From Longivirga aurantiaca (lineage in GTDB: Bacteria; Actinomycetota; Actinomycetes; S36-B12; CAIYMF01), in contig NZ_JBHSTI010000008.1 in NCBI RefSeq assembly GCF_042660085.1, forward strand, positions 90,001-122,000: a stretch of DNA of 32,000 bases, read 5' to 3'. The position numbers and the translations under genes are program-made. The notes below the pieces were generated by a model. The model was not told the DNA's origin and did no database searches. It worked only from the letters and a program-made list of their open reading frames with translations. Positions 14,464 to 24,634 of this stretch are shown here, piece by piece (positions within the stretch are counted from its first letter, which is position 1; every line of letters starts with the position of its first letter).

Positions 14464-14931
14464 TCAGCGGCAGGGGGCGGTGAGGATCGTGCGGTGGGGG
14501 TCGGCCTCGGGGCCGTCGAGGTAGGTCTCCCACGGGTCGCCCGCGCGCTCGAGGGCGTGCTCGGCGAAGAACGCCTCGACCGCGGCGTACGCCTCGCCGA
14601 GCTCCTGCCACCGGCCGACGTGCACGGCCACGACGGCGTCGCCGCCCGGCAGCTCCACCCGCTCGACCGGGCCCGAGCCCTCGAAGCCCGGCGGGCACGG
14701 GAAGCCGGCCTCGAGCGCGAAGACCTGCGCGGCGCCCGAGGCGTCCATCGCGCCCAGGGCGTAGCGGATGACCGGCGCGCCGACGGGGCCGAGGCCCTGG
14801 GCACCCAGCGCCGCCACGACGTCGCCGTACGCCGCCCCCACGAACGCACCGATCTCCTCGGGGCGCGCGGTGCCGCGCACCGCCGCCGCGGGCTGGGGCT
14901 GGAGGCGCTCGACGCCGATGCTCTCGATCAC
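14464..14931 (-). CDS. GyrI-like small-molecule-binding domain protein
   Basis: This is the C-terminal part of track ORF 14464..15843. Start GTG 14931 overlaps the mutY stop (GTGA). The sequence VIESIGVERLQPQPAAAVRG...VHVGRWQELGEAYAAVEAFFAEHALERAGDPWETYLDGPE is typical of GyrI/SOUL-like effector-binding domains. Confidence 0.7.
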   Translation of the reverse strand: MIESIGVERLQPQPAAAVRGTARPEEIGAFVGAAYGDVVAALGAQGLGPVGAPVIRYALGAMDASGAAQVFALEAGFPCPPGFEGSGPVERVELPGGDAVVAVHVGRWQELGEAYAAVEAFFAEHALERAGDPWETYLDGPEADPHRTILTAPCR

Positions 14932-15824
14932 GCGTCGATCGTTCCACCGACGCCCGGCAGGCGGTAGCGGCCGTTGGCCAGCGGCTCGGCGAGGCCGTCC
15001 GCCACCAGGCCGTCCAGGGCTCGCTCGCGCTGGACGGCGTCGTCCCAGACGGCGTCGAGCGCAGGCTTCGGCACGGGCGCGTGCGCCTCGCGCAGCACGG
15101 CCATCAGCCGTCCGCGCACCTGGCGGTCGGTGCCCGCGAACTTCTGCACGGGCCGCTCCGGGCCGTCGTACGCCGGCTTCCCGAGCGCGACCCAGGTGCA
15201 GGTGGCCGACACGGGGCAGGCCCCGCAGGAGGGCGACGCCGCGGTGCAGACGAGCGCGCCGAGCTCCATCACGGCCACCGACCAGAGCGCCGCCTCGCGG
15301 TCGAGGTCGGGCAGCACGGATGCGGCGAGGGCCCGCTCGGCGGCGTTGATCGTGGGCCGGGGGTGCTCGCTGCCCGTGAGGAGCCGGGCGAGGACGCGGC
15401 GCACGTTGGTGTCGAGCACGACCGCGCGCCGACCGAACGCGAACGACTCGAGGGCGGCGGACGTGTAGTCGCCGACGCCGGGCAGCGAGCGCAGCTGCTC
15501 GGGCTCGTGGGGCACCTCGCCGCCGAAGCGCAGCACGCAGGCCTGGGCGGCCTCGTGCAGCCGGAGCGCGCGGCGCGGGTAGCCGAGGCGGCCCCAGGCG
15601 CGCACGACCTCGCCCGGGGGCTCGGCGGCCAGCGCCGCCGGGGTGGGCCAGCGCCGCATCCACTCGAGCCACACGGGGAGCACCCGGTCGACCGGCGTCT
15701 GCTGCAGCATGACCTCGCTCACGAGGACGCCCCAGGGGGTGCGGTCGGCCGCCCGCCACGGCAGGTCGCGGGACGACGCGGCGTACCAGGCCAGCAGCGG
15801 AGCGTGCAGGTGCGAGGGCGGCAT
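14928..15824 (-). CDS. mutY: A/G-specific adenine DNA glycosylase MutY
   Basis: LLAWYAASSRDLPWR and VMLQQTPVDRV are present, with an HhH-GPD element LPGVGDYTSAA. The 4Fe-4S ligand pattern C-x6-C-x2-C-x5-C is CTAASPSCGACPVSATC. ATG 15824 is preferred over GTG 15857. Confidence 0.9.
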   Translation of the reverse strand: MPPSHLHAPLLAWYAASSRDLPWRAADRTPWGVLVSEVMLQQTPVDRVLPVWLEWMRRWPTPAALAAEPPGEVVRAWGRLGYPRRALRLHEAAQACVLRFGGEVPHEPEQLRSLPGVGDYTSAALESFAFGRRAVVLDTNVRRVLARLLTGSEHPRPTINAAERALAASVLPDLDREAALWSVAVMELGALVCTAASPSCGACPVSATCTWVALGKPAYDGPERPVQKFAGTDRQVRGRLMAVLREAHAPVPKPALDAVWDDAVQRERALDGLVADGLAEPLANGRYRLPGVGGTIDA

Positions 15825-15884
15825 GACCCGCGCATCCTCGCACCCAGCCGCGCGCACGGCAGGCGGCCAGGTAGCGTCGCCCCC

Positions 15885-16529
15885 GTGAGCACGCTGCTGC
15901 GCCCTGTCGGGTCCAAGCCGCCCGGCACCTACTGGGTGCGCCGTGCCCTCGTCCTCCTGATCGTGCTCGCCCTGGTCCTCGGAATCCGGCAGCTCTTCTT
16001 CAGCGGCGGCTCCGCGTCCACCGCGGCCCCCGAGCCGACCGGGTCGTCCTCTGCCGAGCCCGACCCGAACGGCAGCGCATCCCCCTCCACGAGCGCCTCG
16101 CCGAAGCCGTCGTCGAGCGCCAGCTCCGGCATCGGGCCGTGCAAGAACAACCAGATCCAGGTGACGTCCTCGACCGACGCGGCGTCCTACCAGGTCGGCG
16201 CCACGCCGCAGCTGCGCATGCGGATCAAGAACATCTCGAAGTCCGCCTGCCAGCGCGATGTCGGCAGCAAGAACAACGAGCTCGTCATCACCTCGGGCAG
16301 CGCCCGCGTGTGGTCGTCGGACGACTGCAACACCGGCGGCAGCGCGCAGGTCGTGACCCTGCAGCCCGGCCAGAGCTACTCCGTGAACGTCACCTGGCTC
16401 GGGCGTCTCTCGCAGAAGGGGTGCCCGCCCGACCAGCCCATCGCAGACGCCGGCACCTACAAGCTCGTCGGCCGCAACGGCGACGTCAGCTCGGACGGCG
16501 CCGTCTTCTCCCTCACCAAGTCCGCCTGA
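15885..16529 (+). CDS. Membrane-anchored secreted protein (N-terminal TM helix, Ser/Pro-rich linker, 4-Cys beta-rich domain); occupies the position of Rv3587c in the conserved block
   Basis: This is the in-frame distal part of ORF 15081..16529, starting at GTG 15885 (VSTLLRPVGSKPPGTYWVRRALVLLIVLALVLGI = TM anchor). It continues with an S/P-rich linker and a domain with Cys pairs (PCKNN...SACQRD...SSDDCNTG...KGCPPD). It is divergent from mutY. Function is unknown. Confidence 0.65.
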   Translation: MSTLLRPVGSKPPGTYWVRRALVLLIVLALVLGIRQLFFSGGSASTAAPEPTGSSSAEPDPNGSASPSTSASPKPSSSASSGIGPCKNNQIQVTSSTDAASYQVGATPQLRMRIKNISKSACQRDVGSKNNELVITSGSARVWSSDDCNTGGSAQVVTLQPGQSYSVNVTWLGRLSQKGCPPDQPIADAGTYKLVGRNGDVSSDGAVFSLTKSA

Positions 16530-16534
16530 GCACG

Positions 16535-16789
16535 ATGGGGCACAGCCACCGGTCCTGGCGCTCGGAGCGCTCGATCCTGTCGATCGCGTCCACGGGATCC
16601 GTGCTCTCCATCGCCTCGACCGGGTCGGTGCTCTCGATCGGGTCGATCGGGTCGGCCCTGTCGGTCGGGTCGATCGGCTCCGTCCTTAGCCTCTGCTCGA
16701 TCCTGTCGGCAGGCTCGAGCTTCTCCGCGCTGTCGTACCGGTCGTACAAGGCGGCCCTGGCAGCGCACGCGGGCCGCTCGAGCGCCTGA
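16535..16789 (+). CDS. Small (84 aa) serine-periodic repeat protein, (S-x-x)23; function unknown
   Basis: ATG 16535 lies 6 nt after the previous stop. By hand count, about 81 of 85 codons end in G or C. Ser occurs at every third residue from residue 4 to residue 70 and is encoded by both TCN and AGC codons, which argues for selection on the protein. See findings. There is no strong SD, and an antisense frame shares the same third-codon positions, so the coding status is not certain. Confidence 0.5.
   Translation: MGHSHRSWRSERSILSIASTGSVLSIASTGSVLSIGSIGSALSVGSIGSVLSLCSILSAGSSFSALSYRSYKAALAAHAGRSSA
16568..16735 (+). repeat. In-frame 27-nt (9-aa) tandem repeats inside the small Ser-periodic ORF
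   Basis: The units encode RSILSIAST / GSVLSIAST / GSVLSIGSI / GSALSVGSI / GSVLSLCSI, followed by degenerate LSAGSSFSA and LS. TCGATC recurs six times. Confidence 0.8.
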
Positions 16790-16984
16790 TCAGGGCGTCG
16801 CCCCCGACATCCGCCAGGCGCTGGCGCCCGTCGTCGGGCAGCCCCTCGCGGGCCGGGCCGGGCGCGGTCCGGGGGCCGAGTTCCTTCCCCCGTACGGGTC
16901 AAGGACCTGCGACTTCCTGACGATGCCTCCCTCAGAGGACCGGGACGACCGGTTCCGCGAGGCTGCGCAGCGGGAGGGGGTCGC

Positions 16985-18079
16985 GTGTCGATGACCGCGT
17001 CCGACGTCGGCGCGCCGGCCATCCCGGAGCGTCGGGTCTCGACCGTCGTCGTCGCGGGCACGCATGTGCGGCTCGCCCGCCTCAGCCACCTCCTGCAGAT
17101 GTCGGGCGTCGAGGTCCTGGGCGCGGCGAAGACGGCCGAGGACGCCGTGACCCTCGTCGGCACCCTCGGCCCGGACACGGTTCTGCTCGACCTCGCGCTC
17201 GGGGTCGGTGGCCTCGAGGTGGTCGAGCGCGTCATGGCGCGCTGCCCCACGCCGATCGTGCTCATCGGCCCCGCGTCGCAGCAGGCCGACGTCGCGCTCG
17301 CCGCCGGGGCGGTGGACGTCGTGGCTCCGACCGCCGAGCACCTCGGGCCCGGCGCCTTCGCCCGTGTGCTCGGACGTCATCTCAGCGTCGCCAGCCGGGT
17401 CCGGGTCATCACCCACCCGCGCGGCAAGCTCCGCGACCGCGGTCTCGCCTCGGACGGCGTCTCGCCTGCGCCGGTCCAGCACGGCGCCTTCCGCCGTACG
17501 CCGGTGGTCGTCATCGGCGCCTCCACGGGCGGACCGCCCGCCCTCGCCTCCCTCCTCGGATCGCTGCCGCCCGACTTCCCGGCACCGGTGGTCGTCGTCC
17601 AGCACATGGCCGAGGGGTTCGTCGAGGGCCTCGCCGGCTGGCTCGACGGCGTGGTGCCGCTGCCCGTCTCCGTCGCCCTCTCCGGCGACCGCCTGCGCCC
17701 CGGCCATGTCGTGGTCGCCCCGAGCGACGGCAACCTGGTCGTCGAGAGCTCCCTGCGCATCCGGGTGGAGCCGGCGCGCCCCTCGCAGCTGCACGTGCCC
17801 GAGGTCGACCGCACCTTCCGCTCGGTCGCCGAGGTGTGCCGCGACCGCGCCGTCGGCGTCCTGCTCACGGGCATGGGGCGTGACGGCGCAACCGGCCTGC
17901 TCGCGATGCGGCGGGTCGGTGCGTTCACGATCGCCCAGGACGAGAGCACCAGCGCCGTGTGGGGCATGCCGGCCGCTGCGCTCGCGGTCGACGCGGCCTC
18001 GGTCGAGCTGCCGCTCCCCGAGATCGCCGCGGCTGTGCTCGACGCCGTCGCGCGGCTCGCCGTCCCGGAGGCGGTGTGA
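16985..18079 (+). CDS. cheB: Protein-glutamate methylesterase/glutaminase CheB with a degenerate N-terminal receiver domain
   Basis: The C-terminal domain has the CheB catalytic triad contexts VVIGASTGGPPAL (Ser), VVVVQHMAEGF (His) and LLTGMGRDGATGL (Asp). The N-terminal roughly 120 aa has receiver-like topology (VLLDLAL) but lacks the DD pair and the conserved Lys. Confidence 0.85.
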   Translation: MSMTASDVGAPAIPERRVSTVVVAGTHVRLARLSHLLQMSGVEVLGAAKTAEDAVTLVGTLGPDTVLLDLALGVGGLEVVERVMARCPTPIVLIGPASQQADVALAAGAVDVVAPTAEHLGPGAFARVLGRHLSVASRVRVITHPRGKLRDRGLASDGVSPAPVQHGAFRRTPVVVIGASTGGPPALASLLGSLPPDFPAPVVVVQHMAEGFVEGLAGWLDGVVPLPVSVALSGDRLRPGHVVVAPSDGNLVVESSLRIRVEPARPSQLHVPEVDRTFRSVAEVCRDRAVGVLLTGMGRDGATGLLAMRRVGAFTIAQDESTSAVWGMPAAALAVDAASVELPLPEIAAAVLDAVARLAVPEAV

Positions 18080-18080
18080 G

Positions 18081-19481
18081 ATGACCACAGTCGCCCCGAG
18101 CCGTGAGCTCACCGACTCCGAGCACCTGGCCCTCGCCGAGTTCCTCTCGCGGACGGCCGGCCTGGTGTTCGACCGCAGTCGTCGTCCGGCCATCGCCGGG
18201 ATCGTCTCCGACCGCATCGCCGCGACCGGTGCAGCCGACCTCGGTGCCTACCTCGCGCGGGTCAGCGCACCGACGGGCGCCGACGAGCGGCAGCGCCTCC
18301 TCGACGAGGTCACGATCCCCGAGACGCACTTCTTCCGGAACCCGCCGCAGATGCACGCGCTGCAGCACCGTCTGCTGCCCGAGCTCATGCGCCGCGCCGT
18401 CGCCCGCGGCCGCGCGCTGACGATCTGGAGCGCAGGCTGCTCGAGCGGCGAGGAGCCATACTCGCTCGCGATGCTCGCGCTCGAGGTGGCCGAGACGCTG
18501 CCCGAGGCGCCCGAGATCCGCATCGTGGCCACCGACCTCTCCTCCGCCGCGGTCAGCGCGACCGTGCGGGGAAGGTACGCCGGACGCTCCCTCGCCCTCG
18601 TCGAGCCGGAGCGGCTCGAGCGGTTCTTCGCGCCGGGCGTGGGCGGTGCCTTCGAGGTGTCGCCCGAGGTCCGTGCGCTCGTCGACGTACGGCTGCACAA
18701 CCTCGTGACCGACCAGCCGCCGTTCGAGCACGGCGAGGTCGACCTCGTCGTGTGCCGCAACGTCACCATCTACTTCGCGCGCGACACGACCCGCGACCTC
18801 GTCGGACGCTTCCACGGAGTGCTCGGCGCCGGCGGCTACCTGGTGCTCGGCCACGCCGAGACGCTGTGGCAGGTGACCGACGCGTTCACGCTCGTGACCC
18901 TCGGGGACGCGTTCGCCTACCGCAAGGACGTGCCGGTCGTCCGCGTGCCTGAGCCCGAGCCCGAGCCGGAGCCGCGCCCCCGGCGTCCGCTGCCGGCGCC
19001 CCGCGTCGCGCCCCCGCGGCCGCACTCGCGCGACGAGCTCGACCACGTCCCGGACCCCGACCTCGCCACCGACCTGCTGCGCCTCGCCCGCGAGGCGATG
19101 GAGCAGACGAGGTACGGCGAGGCCGCGCGTCTGGCGGCTGCGGCCGCGACGGCGAGCCCGTTCGAGGTCGACGCGTACCTCGTCGAGGGACGCGCCCGCG
19201 CGACCGTCGGCGACGACGCCGGCTCGCTCGTGGCCCTGCGCAAGGCGGTCTACCTGTCGCCCGAGCTCGGGCACGCCCGCTTCGCGCTGGCCGGAGCGCT
19301 GTCGCGCTGCGGCGAGCACGCCGCCGCCGCGCGCGAGTACCGCGCCGCGGCCGTCTCCCTGCCGAGCACGTCGGAGAGCGAGCTCGTCGACCTGCTCGAC
19401 GGCTGCGACGTCGTCCAGCTCGTGACGCTGAGCCGCCGCCTCGCCGACGAGTGCGACCGGCGGGCTGTCGAGGAGGGGTGA
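18081..19481 (+). CDS. cheR: Chemotaxis protein methyltransferase CheR with a C-terminal TPR-like extension
   Basis: ATG 18081 lies 1 nt after the cheB stop. It has a CheR_N region (ETHFFRNPPQMHAL), a SAM-binding core (LTIWSAGCSSGEEPYSLAM, VVCRNVTIYF), a Pro/Glu-rich linker and TPR-like helices (EQTRYGEAARLAAAA...AYLVEGRARATVGDDAGSLVALRKAVYLSPELGHARFALAGAL). Confidence 0.88.
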   Translation: MTTVAPSRELTDSEHLALAEFLSRTAGLVFDRSRRPAIAGIVSDRIAATGAADLGAYLARVSAPTGADERQRLLDEVTIPETHFFRNPPQMHALQHRLLPELMRRAVARGRALTIWSAGCSSGEEPYSLAMLALEVAETLPEAPEIRIVATDLSSAAVSATVRGRYAGRSLALVEPERLERFFAPGVGGAFEVSPEVRALVDVRLHNLVTDQPPFEHGEVDLVVCRNVTIYFARDTTRDLVGRFHGVLGAGGYLVLGHAETLWQVTDAFTLVTLGDAFAYRKDVPVVRVPEPEPEPEPRPRRPLPAPRVAPPRPHSRDELDHVPDPDLATDLLRLAREAMEQTRYGEAARLAAAAATASPFEVDAYLVEGRARATVGDDAGSLVALRKAVYLSPELGHARFALAGALSRCGEHAAAAREYRAAAVSLPSTSESELVDLLDGCDVVQLVTLSRRLADECDRRAVEEG

Positions 19482-19483
19482 GC

Positions 19484-20059
19484 GTGTCCCTGTTCACCGC
19501 TGCACCGACGCCGTCGGCCGCGCGCCGTTCCGCGGCTCCAGCCCCGGCGCCCGCTGCCGTCGAGCCCGGCCCGCGCACGCCGGTGAGCGGCGACGGCGGC
19601 CACGTGCTGTTCGCGGTCGGTGCCACGACCTTCGCCGTCGCCGTGGGCGACGTCCACGAGATCACCCGTGCGCCGCGGCTCGACCTCCTGCCCGAGATCG
19701 ACCGGCCCGGCTACGGCTTGGCCGTCGCGCTCGTCGACGTGCGGGGACGCTCGGTGCCGGTGGTCGACCTGCGCACCGATCGGTCGTGCCCCGGCGATGT
19801 GCTGCTGCCGGTCTACCGGCGGCACGCGGGCCTCGTCGTCGACCGTGTGGTGCGGGTGACCGCTGCGGGCGAGCTCGTGCCCGAGACCGACGAGGTGCCC
19901 GAGACGCTGCCGTCGTGGACGCGCGGGATCGTGCGCCCGGCCGGCGGCGGCGACCCGGTCGTCGTGGTCGCGATGCCCGACGCCGCGGCGATCGAGACCG
20001 GCGGTGCGCGGGCCGGCGAGCCACCGCTCGGGTCGCCGGTGCTCGGCGCCGAGGCCTGA
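19484..20059 (+). CDS. cheW: CheW-like coupling protein
   Basis: GTG 19484 lies 2 nt after the cheR stop. After an Ala/Pro-rich N-terminus comes a CheW-like domain: VLFAVGATTFAVAVGDVHEITRAP...VDVRGRSVPVVDLR...AGLVVDRVVRV. Confidence 0.75.
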   Translation: MSLFTAAPTPSAARRSAAPAPAPAAVEPGPRTPVSGDGGHVLFAVGATTFAVAVGDVHEITRAPRLDLLPEIDRPGYGLAVALVDVRGRSVPVVDLRTDRSCPGDVLLPVYRRHAGLVVDRVVRVTAAGELVPETDEVPETLPSWTRGIVRPAGGGDPVVVVAMPDAAAIETGGARAGEPPLGSPVLGAEA

Positions 20060-20144
20060 GCCGCGGCGAAGCCCGTGCATCGGCGCCACGGGTCCGACAT
20101 CCTGGCTGTGGCGGGCAGGGGGCCCGGAGGGGCAGGTCGCGCAC

Positions 20145-20699
20145 ATGTCGTCGTACCGACGGACCGTGGTGGGCGACGTCGTGCCTGGCCGCGGCGCCAT
20201 CGCGTTCGCCTGGGCGGTCTCGATCGCCGTGTTCGGGCTGTCCTTCGTCGCCACCCTCGTCGTCACGATGCTGCTGGTGTCGCCCGTCGCGATGCGCGCG
20301 GATGCGAGCAACCCCCTGGGCGTGCAGTGGGACTCCTGGGCGTCGTGGCTCTGCCTCGGCCTCGCCCTGCTCGTGGGGACCCTGATGATCACGGCCGGCG
20401 GGGGCAGCGGCCTCGTGTGGAAGTGGGCGGAGCTGCGCGTGCTCGACGGCACGGGCGCCGTGGCGTCATGGCCTCGGCGTGCGCTGCGGCCGCTCGTGCT
20501 CGGTGTCGTGGTGCTCGCGGTGCTCGCCGTACGGCACGACACCGGGGGTGCGCTGATCGGGATCGCCCTCGTGGGCGTGGCGCTCGGAACGTCGCTGGCT
20601 GCGGCGGACCGCCGCGGGGTGATGGAGCGGGCGCTCGGGCTGCGCGACGTGACCTACGGTCAGGTGCCCGCCCCCGACGACCACCCCGTGACGACCTGA
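20145..20699 (+). CDS. Small integral membrane protein (about 4 TM), possibly RDD-family-like
   Basis: ATG 20145 lies within ORF 20004..20699. Hydrophobic segments include AIAFAWAVSIAVFGLSFVATLVVTMLLV, WLCLGLALLVGTLMI, LVLGVVVLAVLAV and ALIGIALVGVALG. Resemblance to RDD proteins is weak, and the family call has low confidence. Confidence 0.5.
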   Translation: MSSYRRTVVGDVVPGRGAIAFAWAVSIAVFGLSFVATLVVTMLLVSPVAMRADASNPLGVQWDSWASWLCLGLALLVGTLMITAGGGSGLVWKWAELRVLDGTGAVASWPRRALRPLVLGVVVLAVLAVRHDTGGALIGIALVGVALGTSLAAADRRGVMERALGLRDVTYGQVPAPDDHPVTT

Positions 20700-20711
20700 G
20701 CCGTCGGTGCG

Positions 20712-21809
20712 TCAGACGTAGCGCTCGAGGATGCTGGACTCCGCGAGCCGGCTGAGGCCCTCGCGGATCGAGCGGGCGCGCGTTTCGCCCACGCCCTCGA
20801 CGGCCTGCAGGTCGTCGATGCTCGCGGCCAGCAGGCGCTGGAGCCCGCCGAAGTGGTCGACGAGGCGGTCGAGCACGACCTCGGGCAGGCGCGGCACGCG
20901 GGCGAGCAGGCGGAAGCCGCGCGGGCTGACGGCCTGGTCGAGCACCTCGGGCGCGGTCGGGAATCCGATCGCGCGGGCGACCGTCGTGAGGTCGAGGAGC
21001 TCGGTGGCGGTCAGCGCGTCGAGGTCGTCGAGCGCCGTCTCGAGGGTGCGGGCCGACTTCTTGCTCGTGGGAGCCGGGAGGTAGTCGCGGATCACGAGCT
21101 GGCGGTCGATGTCGACGCCGGCGATGAGCTCGATGAGCTGCAGCGAGAGCAGGCGGCCGTCGGTGCCGAGCTCGACGAGGTAGTCGGAGATCTCCGCCGA
21201 GATGCGCCGGACCATCTCGAGCCGCTGGGCCACCGCGCAGACGTCGCGGACGGTGACGAGGTCCTCGATCTCGAGCGCCGAGAGGGTGCCGCTGACCTCG
21301 TCGAGGCGCATCTTGTAGCGCTCGAGGGTGGCGAGGGCCTGGTTGGCGCGCGACAGGATCTGGCCGGAGTCCTCGAGCACGTGGCGGCGACCGGCCACGT
21401 ACAGGGCGATCGTGTTCATGGACTTGCTGACGCTCACGACGGGGAAGCCGGCCTGCTTGGAGACGCGGTCGGCGGTGCGGTGGCGGGTGCCCTGCTCGTC
21501 GGTGGGGATCGTGGGGTCGGGCAGGAGCTGGACCGCGGCGCGCAGCAGGCGGGTGCCCTCGCGGTCGCAGATGACCGCGCCGTCCATCTTCGCGAGCTCG
21601 CGCAGGCGCTGCGCCGAGAACTCGATGTCGAGGGAGAAGCCGCCGGATGCCATCGCCTCGATGGTGCGGTCGTGGCCGAGGACGACGAGCCCGCCGGTGC
21701 GACCGCGCAGGATGCGCTCGAGGCCGTCGCGCAGGACCGTTCCCGGGGCCACCGCGGCGATCGCCGCCCGCAGGGCGAGGTCGACCTCGTCGCGCTTCTC
21801 GCTCGCCAC
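20712..21809 (-). CDS. disA: DNA integrity scanning protein DisA (diadenylate cyclase)
   Basis: 365 aa with a GTG start. The DAC domain has GGLVVLG, DGAVICD and the RHRTA motif. A linker and a C-terminal HhH region follow (LLDLTTVARAIGF...LQAVEGVGETRARSIREGL). It lies downstream of radA on the same strand, the conserved radA-disA pair. Confidence 0.93.
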   Translation of the reverse strand: MASEKRDEVDLALRAAIAAVAPGTVLRDGLERILRGRTGGLVVLGHDRTIEAMASGGFSLDIEFSAQRLRELAKMDGAVICDREGTRLLRAAVQLLPDPTIPTDEQGTRHRTADRVSKQAGFPVVSVSKSMNTIALYVAGRRHVLEDSGQILSRANQALATLERYKMRLDEVSGTLSALEIEDLVTVRDVCAVAQRLEMVRRISAEISDYLVELGTDGRLLSLQLIELIAGVDIDRQLVIRDYLPAPTSKKSARTLETALDDLDALTATELLDLTTVARAIGFPTAPEVLDQAVSPRGFRLLARVPRLPEVVLDRLVDHFGGLQRLLAASIDDLQAVEGVGETRARSIREGLSRLAESSILERYV

Positions 21810-21969: not shown

Positions 21970-23472
21970 TCAGACGACGGAGAGGTGGCGCAGCATCGCG
22001 AACGCGTCCTCGAGGTGGTGCACCTCGGTGATGCGTGCGCCGTCGAGGGCGCCGCGGGCATCCGGCGGCAGCTTGGCCCTGGTGCCGCGGGGGACGAGGA
22101 TCCGCTCGAAGCCCAGGCGGCGCGCCTCGGCCACGCGCTGGGCGAGGAACGGCACGGGTCGCACGTCGCCCGACAGGGCGACCTCGCCGATCGCGAGCAC
22201 GTCGCCGTGCAGCGCGCGGTCGAGGCTCGCCGACGCGATCGCGAGGCAGACCGCGAGGTCGCAGGCAGGGTCCGAGAGCTTGGCCCCGCCGACGGTGGCG
22301 ACGTACACCTCCTTGTCGGAGATGGGTCGGCGTACCGAGCGCTCGGTGACCGCGATGAGCATGGAGACCCGGGCGGCGTCGAGCCCGCTGACGCCGCGAC
22401 GGGGGTTGGGGGTGGCGGCGTTGGTGACGAGCGACTGCACCTCGGCCAGCATCGGGCGCCGGCCCTCCATCGTGACCGTGACGCAGACGCCGGGGACGGG
22501 CTTGTCGCGGTGCTCGCGGAACAGGTCGCTGGGGTCGGTGACCTCGCGCAGGCCGTCCTCGGCCTGCTCGAAGCAGACGATCTCGTCGGCCGGGCCGTAG
22601 CGGTTCTTCACCGCGCGCAGCAGGCGCAGCGCGGTGTGGCGGTCGCCCTCGAAGGTGAGGACGGTGTCGACGAGGTGCTCGAGGGCGCGGGGCCCGGCGA
22701 TGCTGCTGTCCTTGGTCGACTGGCCGACGATGAGCATCGGCGTACGGCGGGACTTCGCGACCCGGCTCAGCACCTGGGTGACCTCGACGACCTGCGAGAC
22801 GCCGCCGGCGCGGCCCTCGACGTCGGCGCTGGCGATGGTCTGCACCGAGTCGACGATGATCAGCGCGGGATCGTGCTCCTCGATGTGGCCGAGGAGGGTG
22901 GCGAGGTCGTTCTCGTCGGCGAGCAGCAGGCGCTCGGAGTCGGCGCCGATGCGCCGGGCCCTGACGCCGATCTGCTCGACCGACTCCTCGCCCGAGACGT
23001 ACAGCACGGTGCTGCGCCCGCCGGTGACGCCGGCGTCCCACTCGCCCGCCGTCGCGGTGCCGCCGGAGGCCGCCGAGGAGGCGCTGCGCCCCGCGTCCGT
23101 GCCGCCGGGCTCGGCGAGGCGCTCGGCGACGTGGTGGCCCACGGCGAGCAGCAGCGTGGACTTGCCGACGCCCGGCTCGCCCGCGACGAGCACGACCTGG
23201 CCGGGGACGAGGCCGCCGCCGAGGACGCGGTCGAACTCGCCGATGCCGCTGGAGGAGCGGACGACCTCCTGCTCGGCGATCTGGCTGACGGGTCGGGCCG
23301 CACGCGTGGGGGCCACGCCGTCCGTGCGGGCCTTGAGCCCCGACGCCGACGTTGGCGCCGACACCTCGGCCACCGTGCCCCACGCCTGGCACTCGCCGCA
23401 GCGGCCGACCCACTTGGGCGACGTCCACCCGCACTCCGTGCACCGGAACCCCGGCAGCCGCACCTTCGCCAT
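21970..23472 (-). CDS. radA: DNA repair protein RadA/Sms
   Basis: ORF 21970..23673 is trimmed to ATG 23472 ([32 protein letters not shown] = zinc ribbon). It has Walker A [12 protein letters not shown], the KNRYG motif and a Lon-protease-like C-terminal domain. A low-complexity insertion follows Walker A (see findings). Confidence 0.92.
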   Translation of the reverse strand: [500 protein letters not shown]

Positions 23473-23525
23473 GCCCCGCACCCTACGGACCCCCACCGAC
23501 CCCACCCCGACCCCGTCGACCCTCG

Positions 23526-23582
23526 GTTCCGGATGAAGGCGACCTTCATCCAATAGAGCCGAACAATCCTTCCCATCACGGA
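23526..23582 (+). repeat. Intergenic repeat family, copy B (short form)
   Basis: GATGAAGG-CGA-CCTTCATC (23532-23550) is followed by CAATAGAGCCGAACAATCCTTCCCATCAC. It lies in the divergent radA / AbiEi-like intergenic region. Confidence 0.85.
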
Positions 23583-23647
23583 CGGCGTTATCCACAGCCC
23601 CCGCATTCATCCTGGCCGCGGTTCCAGGCGGCGTGGAGCCTGAGGGC

Positions 23648-24634
23648 ATGCCTCGCCGCGCCGAGTGGAGCAAGGACGCCGTACGCCTGGTCGCGGCGCG
23701 TCAGCTCGGACTCATCACCAGTGCCCAACTGACCAGCCTGTCGGTTCCGCGGTCGACGATCGCGTGGTCCGAGCAGGTGGGCGGAATGTTCAGCTGGGTC
23801 CTTCCGGGGGTCCACAGGTTCGAGGGCTCTGGCCCGCTCACGCGTGATCAGGAGAACCTCGCGTCGCTCCTCTGCGGCGGGTTCGGATCCATGCTGAGCG
23901 GTGCCCGGGCGTTGGAGCTGTACGGCGTACGCGCGGCCAGGCGCCGCTCGTTCGGTGGTGACCAGTGGGCACTGGTTCTGGTGCCCCACGAGCGCAAGCG
24001 TTCGAGCCGCGAGTTCGTGCGCATCGAGCGGACTCTCTGGCTCCCGGAGCCGAGGAGCCTCGGCCTCGTCCTCGCCGCGCCACCTGCTCGTGCAGCGATG
24101 GACGCTGCCCGCGCGTGCACTGTGGAGGACGACGTCCGGGCGCTCATCTTCGAGGTGGTGCAGCGGGGGATCACGACGCCCGAGGCGCTATCAGACGAGC
24201 GGATCCGCGGCCAGATCCGCGGATCTCGTTTCGCCCGCCTCGCGCTCGAGGAGGTGTTCGCCGGCGTGCGCTCCGTCCCGGAGGGCGACGTACGGCGGAT
24301 CTTCGAATCCCGCGGCGTGACCGGGCTGCTCTACAACCCGATGCTCTACCTGCCCGACGGCAGCTTCCTCTGCTCGCCCGATGCCTACGACCCGCTCACC
24401 GGCACCGCGCTCGAGGTCGACAGCCGCGAGCATCACTTCTCGGTCCAGAGCTGGGAGGCCACGATGCTGCGCCACGGCCGCATGACCGCTGCCGGGCTCG
24501 GAGTCCTGCACTCGCCGCCGAGCCGCATCACGCGGCAACCGGACGACGTCGTCGACGAGTTCTGCCGTACGCAGTCGTCGCGTCTCGGCTGGGTGCCGAC
24601 CGTTGTCGTGCGACCCTCGTCGCCCGCCGCGTGA
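23648..24634 (+). CDS. AbiEi-antitoxin-like N-terminal domain / DUF559-like (Vsr-type endonuclease fold) C-terminal domain protein
   Basis: ATG 23648 (alternative GTG 23633). The N-terminal LVAARQLGLITSAQLTSLSVPRSTIAWSEQVGGMFSWVLPGVHRF matches the AbiEi_4-type winged-helix pattern. The C-terminal PDAYDPLTGTALEVDSREHH...MLRHGRMTAAGLGVLH resembles DUF559. No AbiEii-type partner is adjacent. Confidence 0.6.
   Translation: MPRRAEWSKDAVRLVAARQLGLITSAQLTSLSVPRSTIAWSEQVGGMFSWVLPGVHRFEGSGPLTRDQENLASLLCGGFGSMLSGARALELYGVRAARRRSFGGDQWALVLVPHERKRSSREFVRIERTLWLPEPRSLGLVLAAPPARAAMDAARACTVEDDVRALIFEVVQRGITTPEALSDERIRGQIRGSRFARLALEEVFAGVRSVPEGDVRRIFESRGVTGLLYNPMLYLPDGSFLCSPDAYDPLTGTALEVDSREHHFSVQSWEATMLRHGRMTAAGLGVLHSPPSRITRQPDDVVDEFCRTQSSRLGWVPTVVVRPSSPAA

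Follow-up and report, generated by a model that had tools for sequence, protein, structure and literature searches.

The 32,000-nucleotide stretch of Longivirga aurantiaca DNA analysed here (C8:90001-122000, where C8 is contig NZ_JBHSTI010000008.1; called the window below) belongs to a 3.67-Mb assembly that is 96% complete. It carries three tightly packed genes of chemosensory signalling, cheB, cheR and cheW. We conclude, with a probability of roughly 85%, that these genes are the detached adaptation and coupling half of a pathway of the alternative cellular functions (ACF) class, Wsp/Frz-like in composition. This class assignment was made by gene content. The cluster is neither an orphan nor a new methylation module in our reading, because the genome has no other CheB or CheR, and because a receptor-kinase locus elsewhere on the contig has no cheB or cheR of its own and is inherited together with the cluster.

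The cheB-cheR-cheW cluster and its partner locus

We called genes in the window, whose G+C content is about 72%, by third-position G+C (GC3) frames and stop-to-stop open reading frames (ORFs). Three genes were confirmed on the + strand, in the order cheB (16985..18079), cheR (18081..19481) and cheW (19484..20059). The cheB/cheR junction reads TGA-G-ATG and the cheR/cheW junction TGA-GC-GTG; thus, the 1- and 2-nt spacers described in the initial annotation of this DNA are real. The cheB gene starts at a GTG (16985), with an alternative ATG at 16991. Searching the window with protein profiles, we found no MCPsignal domain (the signalling domain of methyl-accepting chemotaxis proteins, MCPs), no CheA and no CheW domain besides that of this cheW, and the remaining main ORFs had no receiver domain. 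The earlier observation that the window lacks CheA, CheY and MCP is therefore correct.

The name "orphan" given to the cluster at that time did not survive an inventory of the whole genome. CheB_methylest and CheR each gave a single genome match, both in this cluster. MCPsignal gave two matches (C8:435924 and C8:339041) and the CheW domain three (C8:434487, C8:437964 and this cluster). These led to a partner locus at C8:434-440 kb, on the same contig and 328 kb from the cluster, which encodes a CheW, an MCP, a CheA and a receiver-GAF (REC-GAF) response regulator. The CheA has Hpt, HATPase_c and CheW domains and a C-terminal receiver (CheA::REC). No cheB and no cheR were found at the partner locus. 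The initial annotation had named just this, a che locus elsewhere lacking its own cheB and cheR, as the finding that would make the three genes split-off members of a larger system. It had also offered two readings of the cluster, and the first, in which the enzymes service receptors encoded elsewhere, is the one that the inventory supports.

The partner locus is intact. The Hpt histidine and both receivers are canonical. The receptor has 535 aa and about six membrane helices in its N-terminal part; it lacks a periplasmic domain. Beyond the tip of its signalling hairpin (G393/E394) we counted 142 residues, which by this count is compatible with heptad class 40H and excludes 44H. The receptor is collinear with a model of Pseudomonas CtpM, and it is 36 residues longer than a model of E. 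coli Tar over the same span. The second MCP gene of the genome (C8:337553-339661) is longer and contains a HAMP domain. At the partner locus, the gap between an FtsH-like gene and cheW (C8:433929-434333; L008:5929-6333) reads as a small hydrophobic membrane protein, which may be co-transcribed with cheW.

The three products of the cluster are recognisable members of their families. In Pfam searches, CheB matched CheB_methylest (PF01339) with 196 bits, while its N-terminal receiver reached 29.3 bits with Response_reg, just below the cut-off of 30.2. The methyltransferase matched CheR (PF01739) with 170.7 bits; CheR_N and tetratricopeptide repeat (TPR) families gave weak sequence matches. The TPR extension proposed in the initial annotation is thus faint by sequence. 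It is clear by structure: the AlphaFold model of CheR (33 orthologues, pLDDT 89) has a CheR core, a disordered Pro-rich linker at about residues 290-325 and eight paired helices at 326-465. Comparing this model by Foldseek, we find that the core resembles 1bc5/1af7 (TMt 0.87) and the C-terminal tail resembles TPR domains such as 2vyi (TMt 0.87). The third gene encodes a second coupling protein, a CheW paralogue with a Pro/Ala-rich N-terminal extension, and its product passed PF01584 with 35 bits against a cut-off of 23.5. A CheW of 135-170 aa occupies this position in nearly all syntenic loci of other genomes. These third-gene CheWs can be aligned, with 12 invariant columns, and 20/20 members pass PF01584.

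CheR-TPR proteins and multidomain response regulators, those with GAF domains included, are typical of ACF pathways (PMC3447774). The genome at hand shows these traits of the ACF class, as defined in the scheme of Wuichet and Zhulin: it has a CheR-TPR, multidomain regulators (REC-GAF and CheA::REC) and no flagellar genes, since neither FHIPEP/FlhA nor flagellin was found in the 96%-complete assembly.

Conservation and co-inheritance of the two loci

Performing a protein-guided scan of species-representative genomes, we assembled a set of syntenic loci. About 48 actinobacterial species known from metagenome-assembled genomes (MAGs) keep the order mutY(-)/Rv3587c-like(+)/cheB/cheR/cheW/disA(-), with CheBs that are 47-87% identical. 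The position of the three genes between the Rv3587c-like gene and disA is old and stably inherited, and the earlier description of the cluster as "inserted" there is misleading. One locus, L015 (JANWJC010000027.1), is labelled "Acidobacteria bacterium" and yet has the actinobacterial mutY/Rv3587c-like/cheB/cheR/cheW/disA synteny at 56-77% identity; in the public record, this contig has probably been given the wrong taxon or been binned wrongly.

The receptor-kinase locus is equally stable. It was syntenic in 12/12 genomes examined, with a PIG-L deacetylase gene and an FtsH-like gene on one side and a flavin reductase gene and a vanW gene on the other. Relatives carry one to four receptor genes in tandem at this locus, of which there is one copy here. 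In the relatives L091, L093, L099 and L100, the receptor gene has been multiplied in tandem, to three or four copies in several species.

We checked whether the two loci occur together. MCPsignal was present in 46/49 genomes with the syntenic cluster, compared with 35/201 genomes of an even sample of the order. For the class, an even sample of 301 genomes was scored for orthologues of CheR and of CheA::REC. The CheR orthologue was found in 108/301 genomes (43-76% identity) and the CheA::REC orthologue in 116. Both were present in 107 genomes, CheR only in 1, CheA only in 9 (mostly fragmented MAGs) and neither in 184. On contigs carrying both, CheR and CheA were separated by 250 kb to 2.3 Mb and in no case adjacent. 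The pattern is also seen within individual families. Within the family of the present species, genus g1 has CheB in 20/23 genomes and an MCP in 21/23, while its sister genus g2 (MCP in 0/20) is essentially without both loci. In five g2 genomes that we examined, the Rv3587c-like gene converges straight on disA, leaving an empty site.

A first count of CheB in the order sample (60/201) appeared to contain many genomes with CheB and no MCP. This was rejected, as most of the matches lie in frames of 1300-1750 aa and were not counted as orthologues. Such long CheB_methylest frames of MCP-less relatives (e.g. G009:C6:80327, G026:C1:253980 and G150:C5:7103) are probably CheB-CheR-sensor-kinase fusions, a different and MCP-independent use of these domains.

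Relatives with an undivided system indicate how the two loci may have arisen. The nearest CheBs beyond the clade are non-actinobacterial and lie in single operons of the type cheR-cheW-mcp-cheA-cheB-response regulator. A MAG of the Ilumatobacteraceae (Acidimicrobiia) has the unsplit operon cheW-cheA::REC-cheB-cheR-cheW-REC::GGDEF. The output domain in the clade of the window is GAF, not GGDEF. The cluster is best read as a block of such an operon, parted long ago from the receptor-kinase block, because the unsplit Acidimicrobiia operon has the same cheB-cheR-cheW order as the window.

These results bear on the second reading of the initial annotation, which it favoured: a CheA-independent module that methylates and demethylates a substrate other than a chemoreceptor. 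The distance of 328 kb between the cluster and cheA would suit such a module. However, the cluster includes a CheW, and the sole known role of CheW is to couple receptors to CheA. CheA co-occurs with CheR almost perfectly (107 genomes with both, one with CheR alone), an unsplit operon of ancestral type exists, and the two MCPs of the genome would be left without adaptation enzymes. The inventory and the co-inheritance together make this second reading very improbable, and they favour a cluster that adapts the receptors of the partner locus.

The conserved neighbourhood itself invites another explanation, namely that the cluster is functionally linked to DNA-damage or c-di-AMP signalling through disA, radA and mutY. 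The adjacency of mutY, the Rv3587c-like gene, cheBRW and disA in about 48 species is what speaks for it. Nevertheless, co-transcription is precluded by the convergent orientation of cheW and disA, and profile searches detected no c-di-AMP-binding domain in the three che proteins. Actinobacteria keep the order of the flanks whether or not they have che genes, as g2 with its empty site shows; therefore, the adjacency is most simply inherited gene order. We regard a functional link to disA as highly unlikely, and the detached half of an ACF-class pathway stays the preferred explanation of the cluster.

The CheB receiver and a predicted WhiG-type promoter

The initial annotation was right that the CheB receiver is degenerate. 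Here, AG stands where the DD pair is expected and Gly where Ser/Thr is expected; the Lys is gone, while the phospho-acceptor Asp is retained. Alignment by HMMER with two solved CheB structures, 7esg and 1a2o, shows the same substitutions. Aligning 80 CheBs, we find that the syntenic actinobacterial proteins split into two receiver groups. In the pseudo-receiver group (the CheB of the window, L010-L028 and L063, together with L052, L057 and L068 by partial receiver alignments), AG or AA stands in place of the Mg-binding DD, Gly in place of Ser/Thr, and a small deletion removes the Lys; the Asp is kept. The canonical group (L029-L051 and L055), labelled Frankiales/Mycobacteriales, has the residue set DD..D..S..K. 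Synteny and partner locus are common to both groups. As judged from these alignments, the degenerate receiver is a derived trait of one sublineage within one pathway. It is no sign of another substrate, as the initial annotation had taken it to be, because relatives whose receiver is canonical do not differ in synteny or partner locus. Although the pseudo-receiver could be counted in favour of a CheA-independent module, the relatives of identical synteny with a phosphorylatable receiver thus argue against it.

The lost residues do not mean a lost domain. The AlphaFold model of the pseudo-receiver keeps the (beta-alpha)5 fold (pLDDT 88.8, and above 90 over most of residues 19-136), and the pseudo-receiver state is preserved between species whose CheBs are just 48-87% identical. 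The catalytic part is fully intact: the GASTGG, QHM and GMGRDG motifs of Ser-His-Asp catalysis are present here and in every aligned orthologue, and the catalytic residues are invariant in at least 44 orthologues. In the pseudo-receiver group, pairwise identity averages 0.53 in the receiver and 0.68 in the catalytic domain; the corresponding values in the canonical group are 0.70 and 0.73.

We also considered whether a chemotaxis system was lost and left the cluster behind as a decaying remnant. The absence of flagellar genes and the degenerate, less conserved receiver would be compatible with decay. However, the frames are intact, and the ratio of nonsynonymous to synonymous substitution rates (dN/dS) against the nearest species, L010, is 0.14 for cheB, 0.13 for cheR and 0.21 for cheW. 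All three genes are under purifying selection, and nothing is decaying. The invariant catalytic residues, the conserved and foldable pseudo-receiver state and the intact partner locus point the same way, which leaves the remnant explanation with next to no credibility.

We searched the region upstream of cheB for regulatory signals. A scan for sigma-70 promoters and terminators over 15800-20800 found none, which is uninformative at 75% G+C. A WhiG/sigma-28-type promoter box, TCAA-N16-GACGA(TG), lies on the + strand at 16899..16926; its core, TCAA-N16-GACGA (16899-16923), precedes the start of cheB by 86 nt. With the single mismatch that the rule tolerates in position 1-2, the cheB box fits the search rule published for WhiG2, T(A/C)AA-N16-GCCGA (PMC12871210). 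A box within 200 nt upstream of cheB was found in 26/40 syntenic loci, compared with 38/1841 control windows. By receiver group, it was present in 19/21 pseudo-receiver loci and in 7/19 canonical loci. Spacers vary between the loci that have a box upstream of cheB. The genome, which is without FlhA and flagellin, encodes a sigma-28 factor of the FliA/WhiG family (C8:898040-898723; L116) that scored 279.5 bits against a curated cut-off of 189.6. The operon is probably transcribed from this predicted WhiG-type promoter.

The same type of box offers a lead to the output of the pathway. The genome contains 89 perfect T(A/C)AA-N16-GCCGA boxes, five of them on the coding strand of a 17-kb type IV pilus locus at C8:1443001-1460000 (C8:1443650, 1448351, 1453050, 1457568 and 1459341; L119). 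This locus encodes a Roadblock/LC7 protein, a DUF4388 (PATAN) protein, a small Ras-like GTPase, PilB with an MshEN domain, PilT, PilC, PilM, a pilin, minor pilin-like proteins and a prepilin peptidase. In the class sample, a PilT orthologue was found in 115/117 che-positive genomes versus 68/184 che-negative genomes. The pilus and che loci are not adjacent, which counts against a link. A simple co-loss of che and pilus genes was rejected, as the che-less sister genus g2 keeps the PilB/PilT ATPases. We tentatively put forward the control of pilus behaviour, as with Frz in Myxococcus, as the leading candidate for the output, and regard it as one possibility.

Taking the two loci together, the pathway would work as follows. 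The receptors and the two CheW proteins would control autophosphorylation of CheA, and the phosphate would then reach both the CheA receiver and REC-GAF. Glu/Gln pairs of the receptors would be methylated by CheR-TPR; CheB would demethylate or deamidate these pairs and thereby reset the sensitivity. In the pseudo-receiver sublineage, where CheB lacks the residues for phosphorylation, CheA would likely no longer stimulate demethylation, and this step would probably run outside the kinase feedback.

Several observations weigh against assigning the cluster to the partner locus. The receptors have no C-terminal tethering pentapeptide, and the partner-locus receptor has Glx pairs but just two strict methylation-consensus sites. 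As the CheB receiver here is without the phosphorylatable residue set, this lineage lacks one of the canonical links to CheA. No WhiG-type box was found at the receptor-kinase locus or upstream of the second MCP gene. The box is thus at the cheB locus only, and the conditions of expression may differ between the two halves; a promoter of its own would also suit a CheA-independent module. Finally, the relatives in our samples are not independent, and the co-occurrence counts describe the pattern and overstate its statistical strength. The probability given above for the detached half of an ACF-class pathway takes these points together with the evidence in its favour.

Neighbouring genes and comparison with known systems

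The wider gene order in the window is clpC1, a GT87 glycosyltransferase gene, mutY (14928-15857, - strand), the Rv3587c-like gene, a microprotein gene, the che genes, a gene for a protein with four transmembrane helices (4-TM), disA and radA (21970-23673, - strand). The Rv3587c-like gene (15885..16529, + strand) encodes a membrane protein with a weak DUF4232 match. It forms the conserved left flank, as it precedes cheB in essentially every syntenic locus, and has a dN/dS of 0.46 against the nearest species. The right flank is disA (20712..21809, - strand), which is convergent with the che operon and encodes DAC, DisA-linker and HHH domains.

The initial annotation treated the three che genes and the two small genes beside them as a five-gene unit. 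This unit did not hold up: cheB-cheR-cheW alone is conserved in about 48 species, and the two small genes are lineage-specific additions outside the conserved unit. The Ser-x-x repeat microprotein (84 aa; 16535..16789, + strand) had no family match in profile searches and was found only in L010, with 89% identity; it was not detectable in more distant syntenic loci. Its dN/dS of 0.21 against L010 indicates purifying selection. The gene is probably outside the transcript from the cheB box, because it is located upstream of the predicted promoter. A weak paralogue is present at C2:157399-157629 (34% identity over 79 aa). The 4-TM protein (184 aa; 20145..20699, + strand, with its ATG after GGAGGGG) was likewise found only in L010 (72% identity, dN/dS 0.30), and it had no Pfam or NCBIfam match. 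In other loci, cheW directly adjoins disA without the 4-TM gene. A weak paralogue of the 4-TM protein lies at C2:528599-528934.

In its main lines this is an ordinary system with a slightly unusual layout. It does not overturn current understanding, and it should be of moderate interest to specialists in signal transduction. What is distinctive is the conserved split layout, the lineage-specific CheB that is blind to its kinase and the uncharacterised REC-GAF output. A complete ACF-type pathway occupies two fixed sites in about one-third of the sampled class genomes, and CheR-TPR was once thought to be nearly absent from Gram-positives. A folded, non-phosphorylatable CheB receiver that has been kept for so long is a natural test of whether the phospho-feedback on CheB is dispensable. 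The WhiG-type box, found on the adaptation half alone and of a kind also seen at the pilus locus, is a testable lead to the output. In its most extended form, the picture would be of a large, mostly uncultured actinomycete clade that steers its pilus behaviour by a two-locus Frz/Wsp-like pathway with an undescribed REC-GAF output, with the adaptation half in a WhiG regulon shared with pilus genes and, in one sublineage, a kinase-blind CheB. Adaptation in that sublineage would then be free of phospho-feedback, a naturally occurring departure from the textbook circuit, and the bacteria whose pilus behaviour is steered would be ones considered non-motile. That all of this holds at once is doubtful.

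We searched the literature for chemosensory genes of Nanopelagicales or Frankia and for a pseudo-receiver CheB, and found nothing specific on either subject. Comparison with better-studied pathways is nevertheless informative. The Wsp system of Pseudomonas is likewise non-flagellar, and it shares with the present one a membrane MCP, two CheW proteins, a CheR with a TPR tail, a CheA-receiver fusion, a CheB and a multidomain regulator. This comparison is one of parts lists, drawn from established knowledge and PMC3447774. The operon of the Acidimicrobiia relative resembles Wsp down to the REC-GGDEF output. In contrast to Wsp, the genes here are found at two loci 328 kb apart, not in a single seven-gene operon, and the output is REC-GAF instead of the REC-GGDEF of WspR. 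Moreover, the CheB receiver here is not phosphorylatable, and the receptor, with about six membrane helices, lacks a periplasmic domain.

The Frz system of Myxococcus xanthus has a CheA-receiver fusion (FrzE), a CheB (FrzG) and two CheW-type proteins, and its host is non-flagellated. Frz steers type IV pilus motility via a small GTPase and a Roadblock protein. The pilus locus here also has a Roadblock protein, a small GTPase and a PATAN/DUF4388 protein, and it has WhiG-type boxes in common with the cheB operon. FrzF, a CheR with a regulatory TPR domain, is the studied example of a CheR-TPR (PMC2535941). The two systems differ in their receptors, that of Frz (FrzCD) being cytoplasmic and that of the present pathway membrane-embedded, and in their outputs, a dual-receiver protein in Frz and REC-GAF here.

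A closer parallel in layout comes from a survey of the chemosensory classes of flagellated actinobacterial species, which reports having checked its classes against MiST (PMC10746217). In the ACF set listed there for Acidothermus cellulolyticus 11B, CheB, CheR and CheW have consecutive accessions (WP_011719060, WP_011719061 and WP_011719062), whereas a CheW (WP_011720706) and the CheA (WP_011720708) are far off in accession number (PMC10746217, Table S3). Acidothermus differs from the present genome in having flagellar genes and an F5 system in addition. Its ACF set resembles ours both in the two-site pattern and in the order of the cheB-cheR-cheW block, a likeness in which orthology is inferred from the accession pattern alone.

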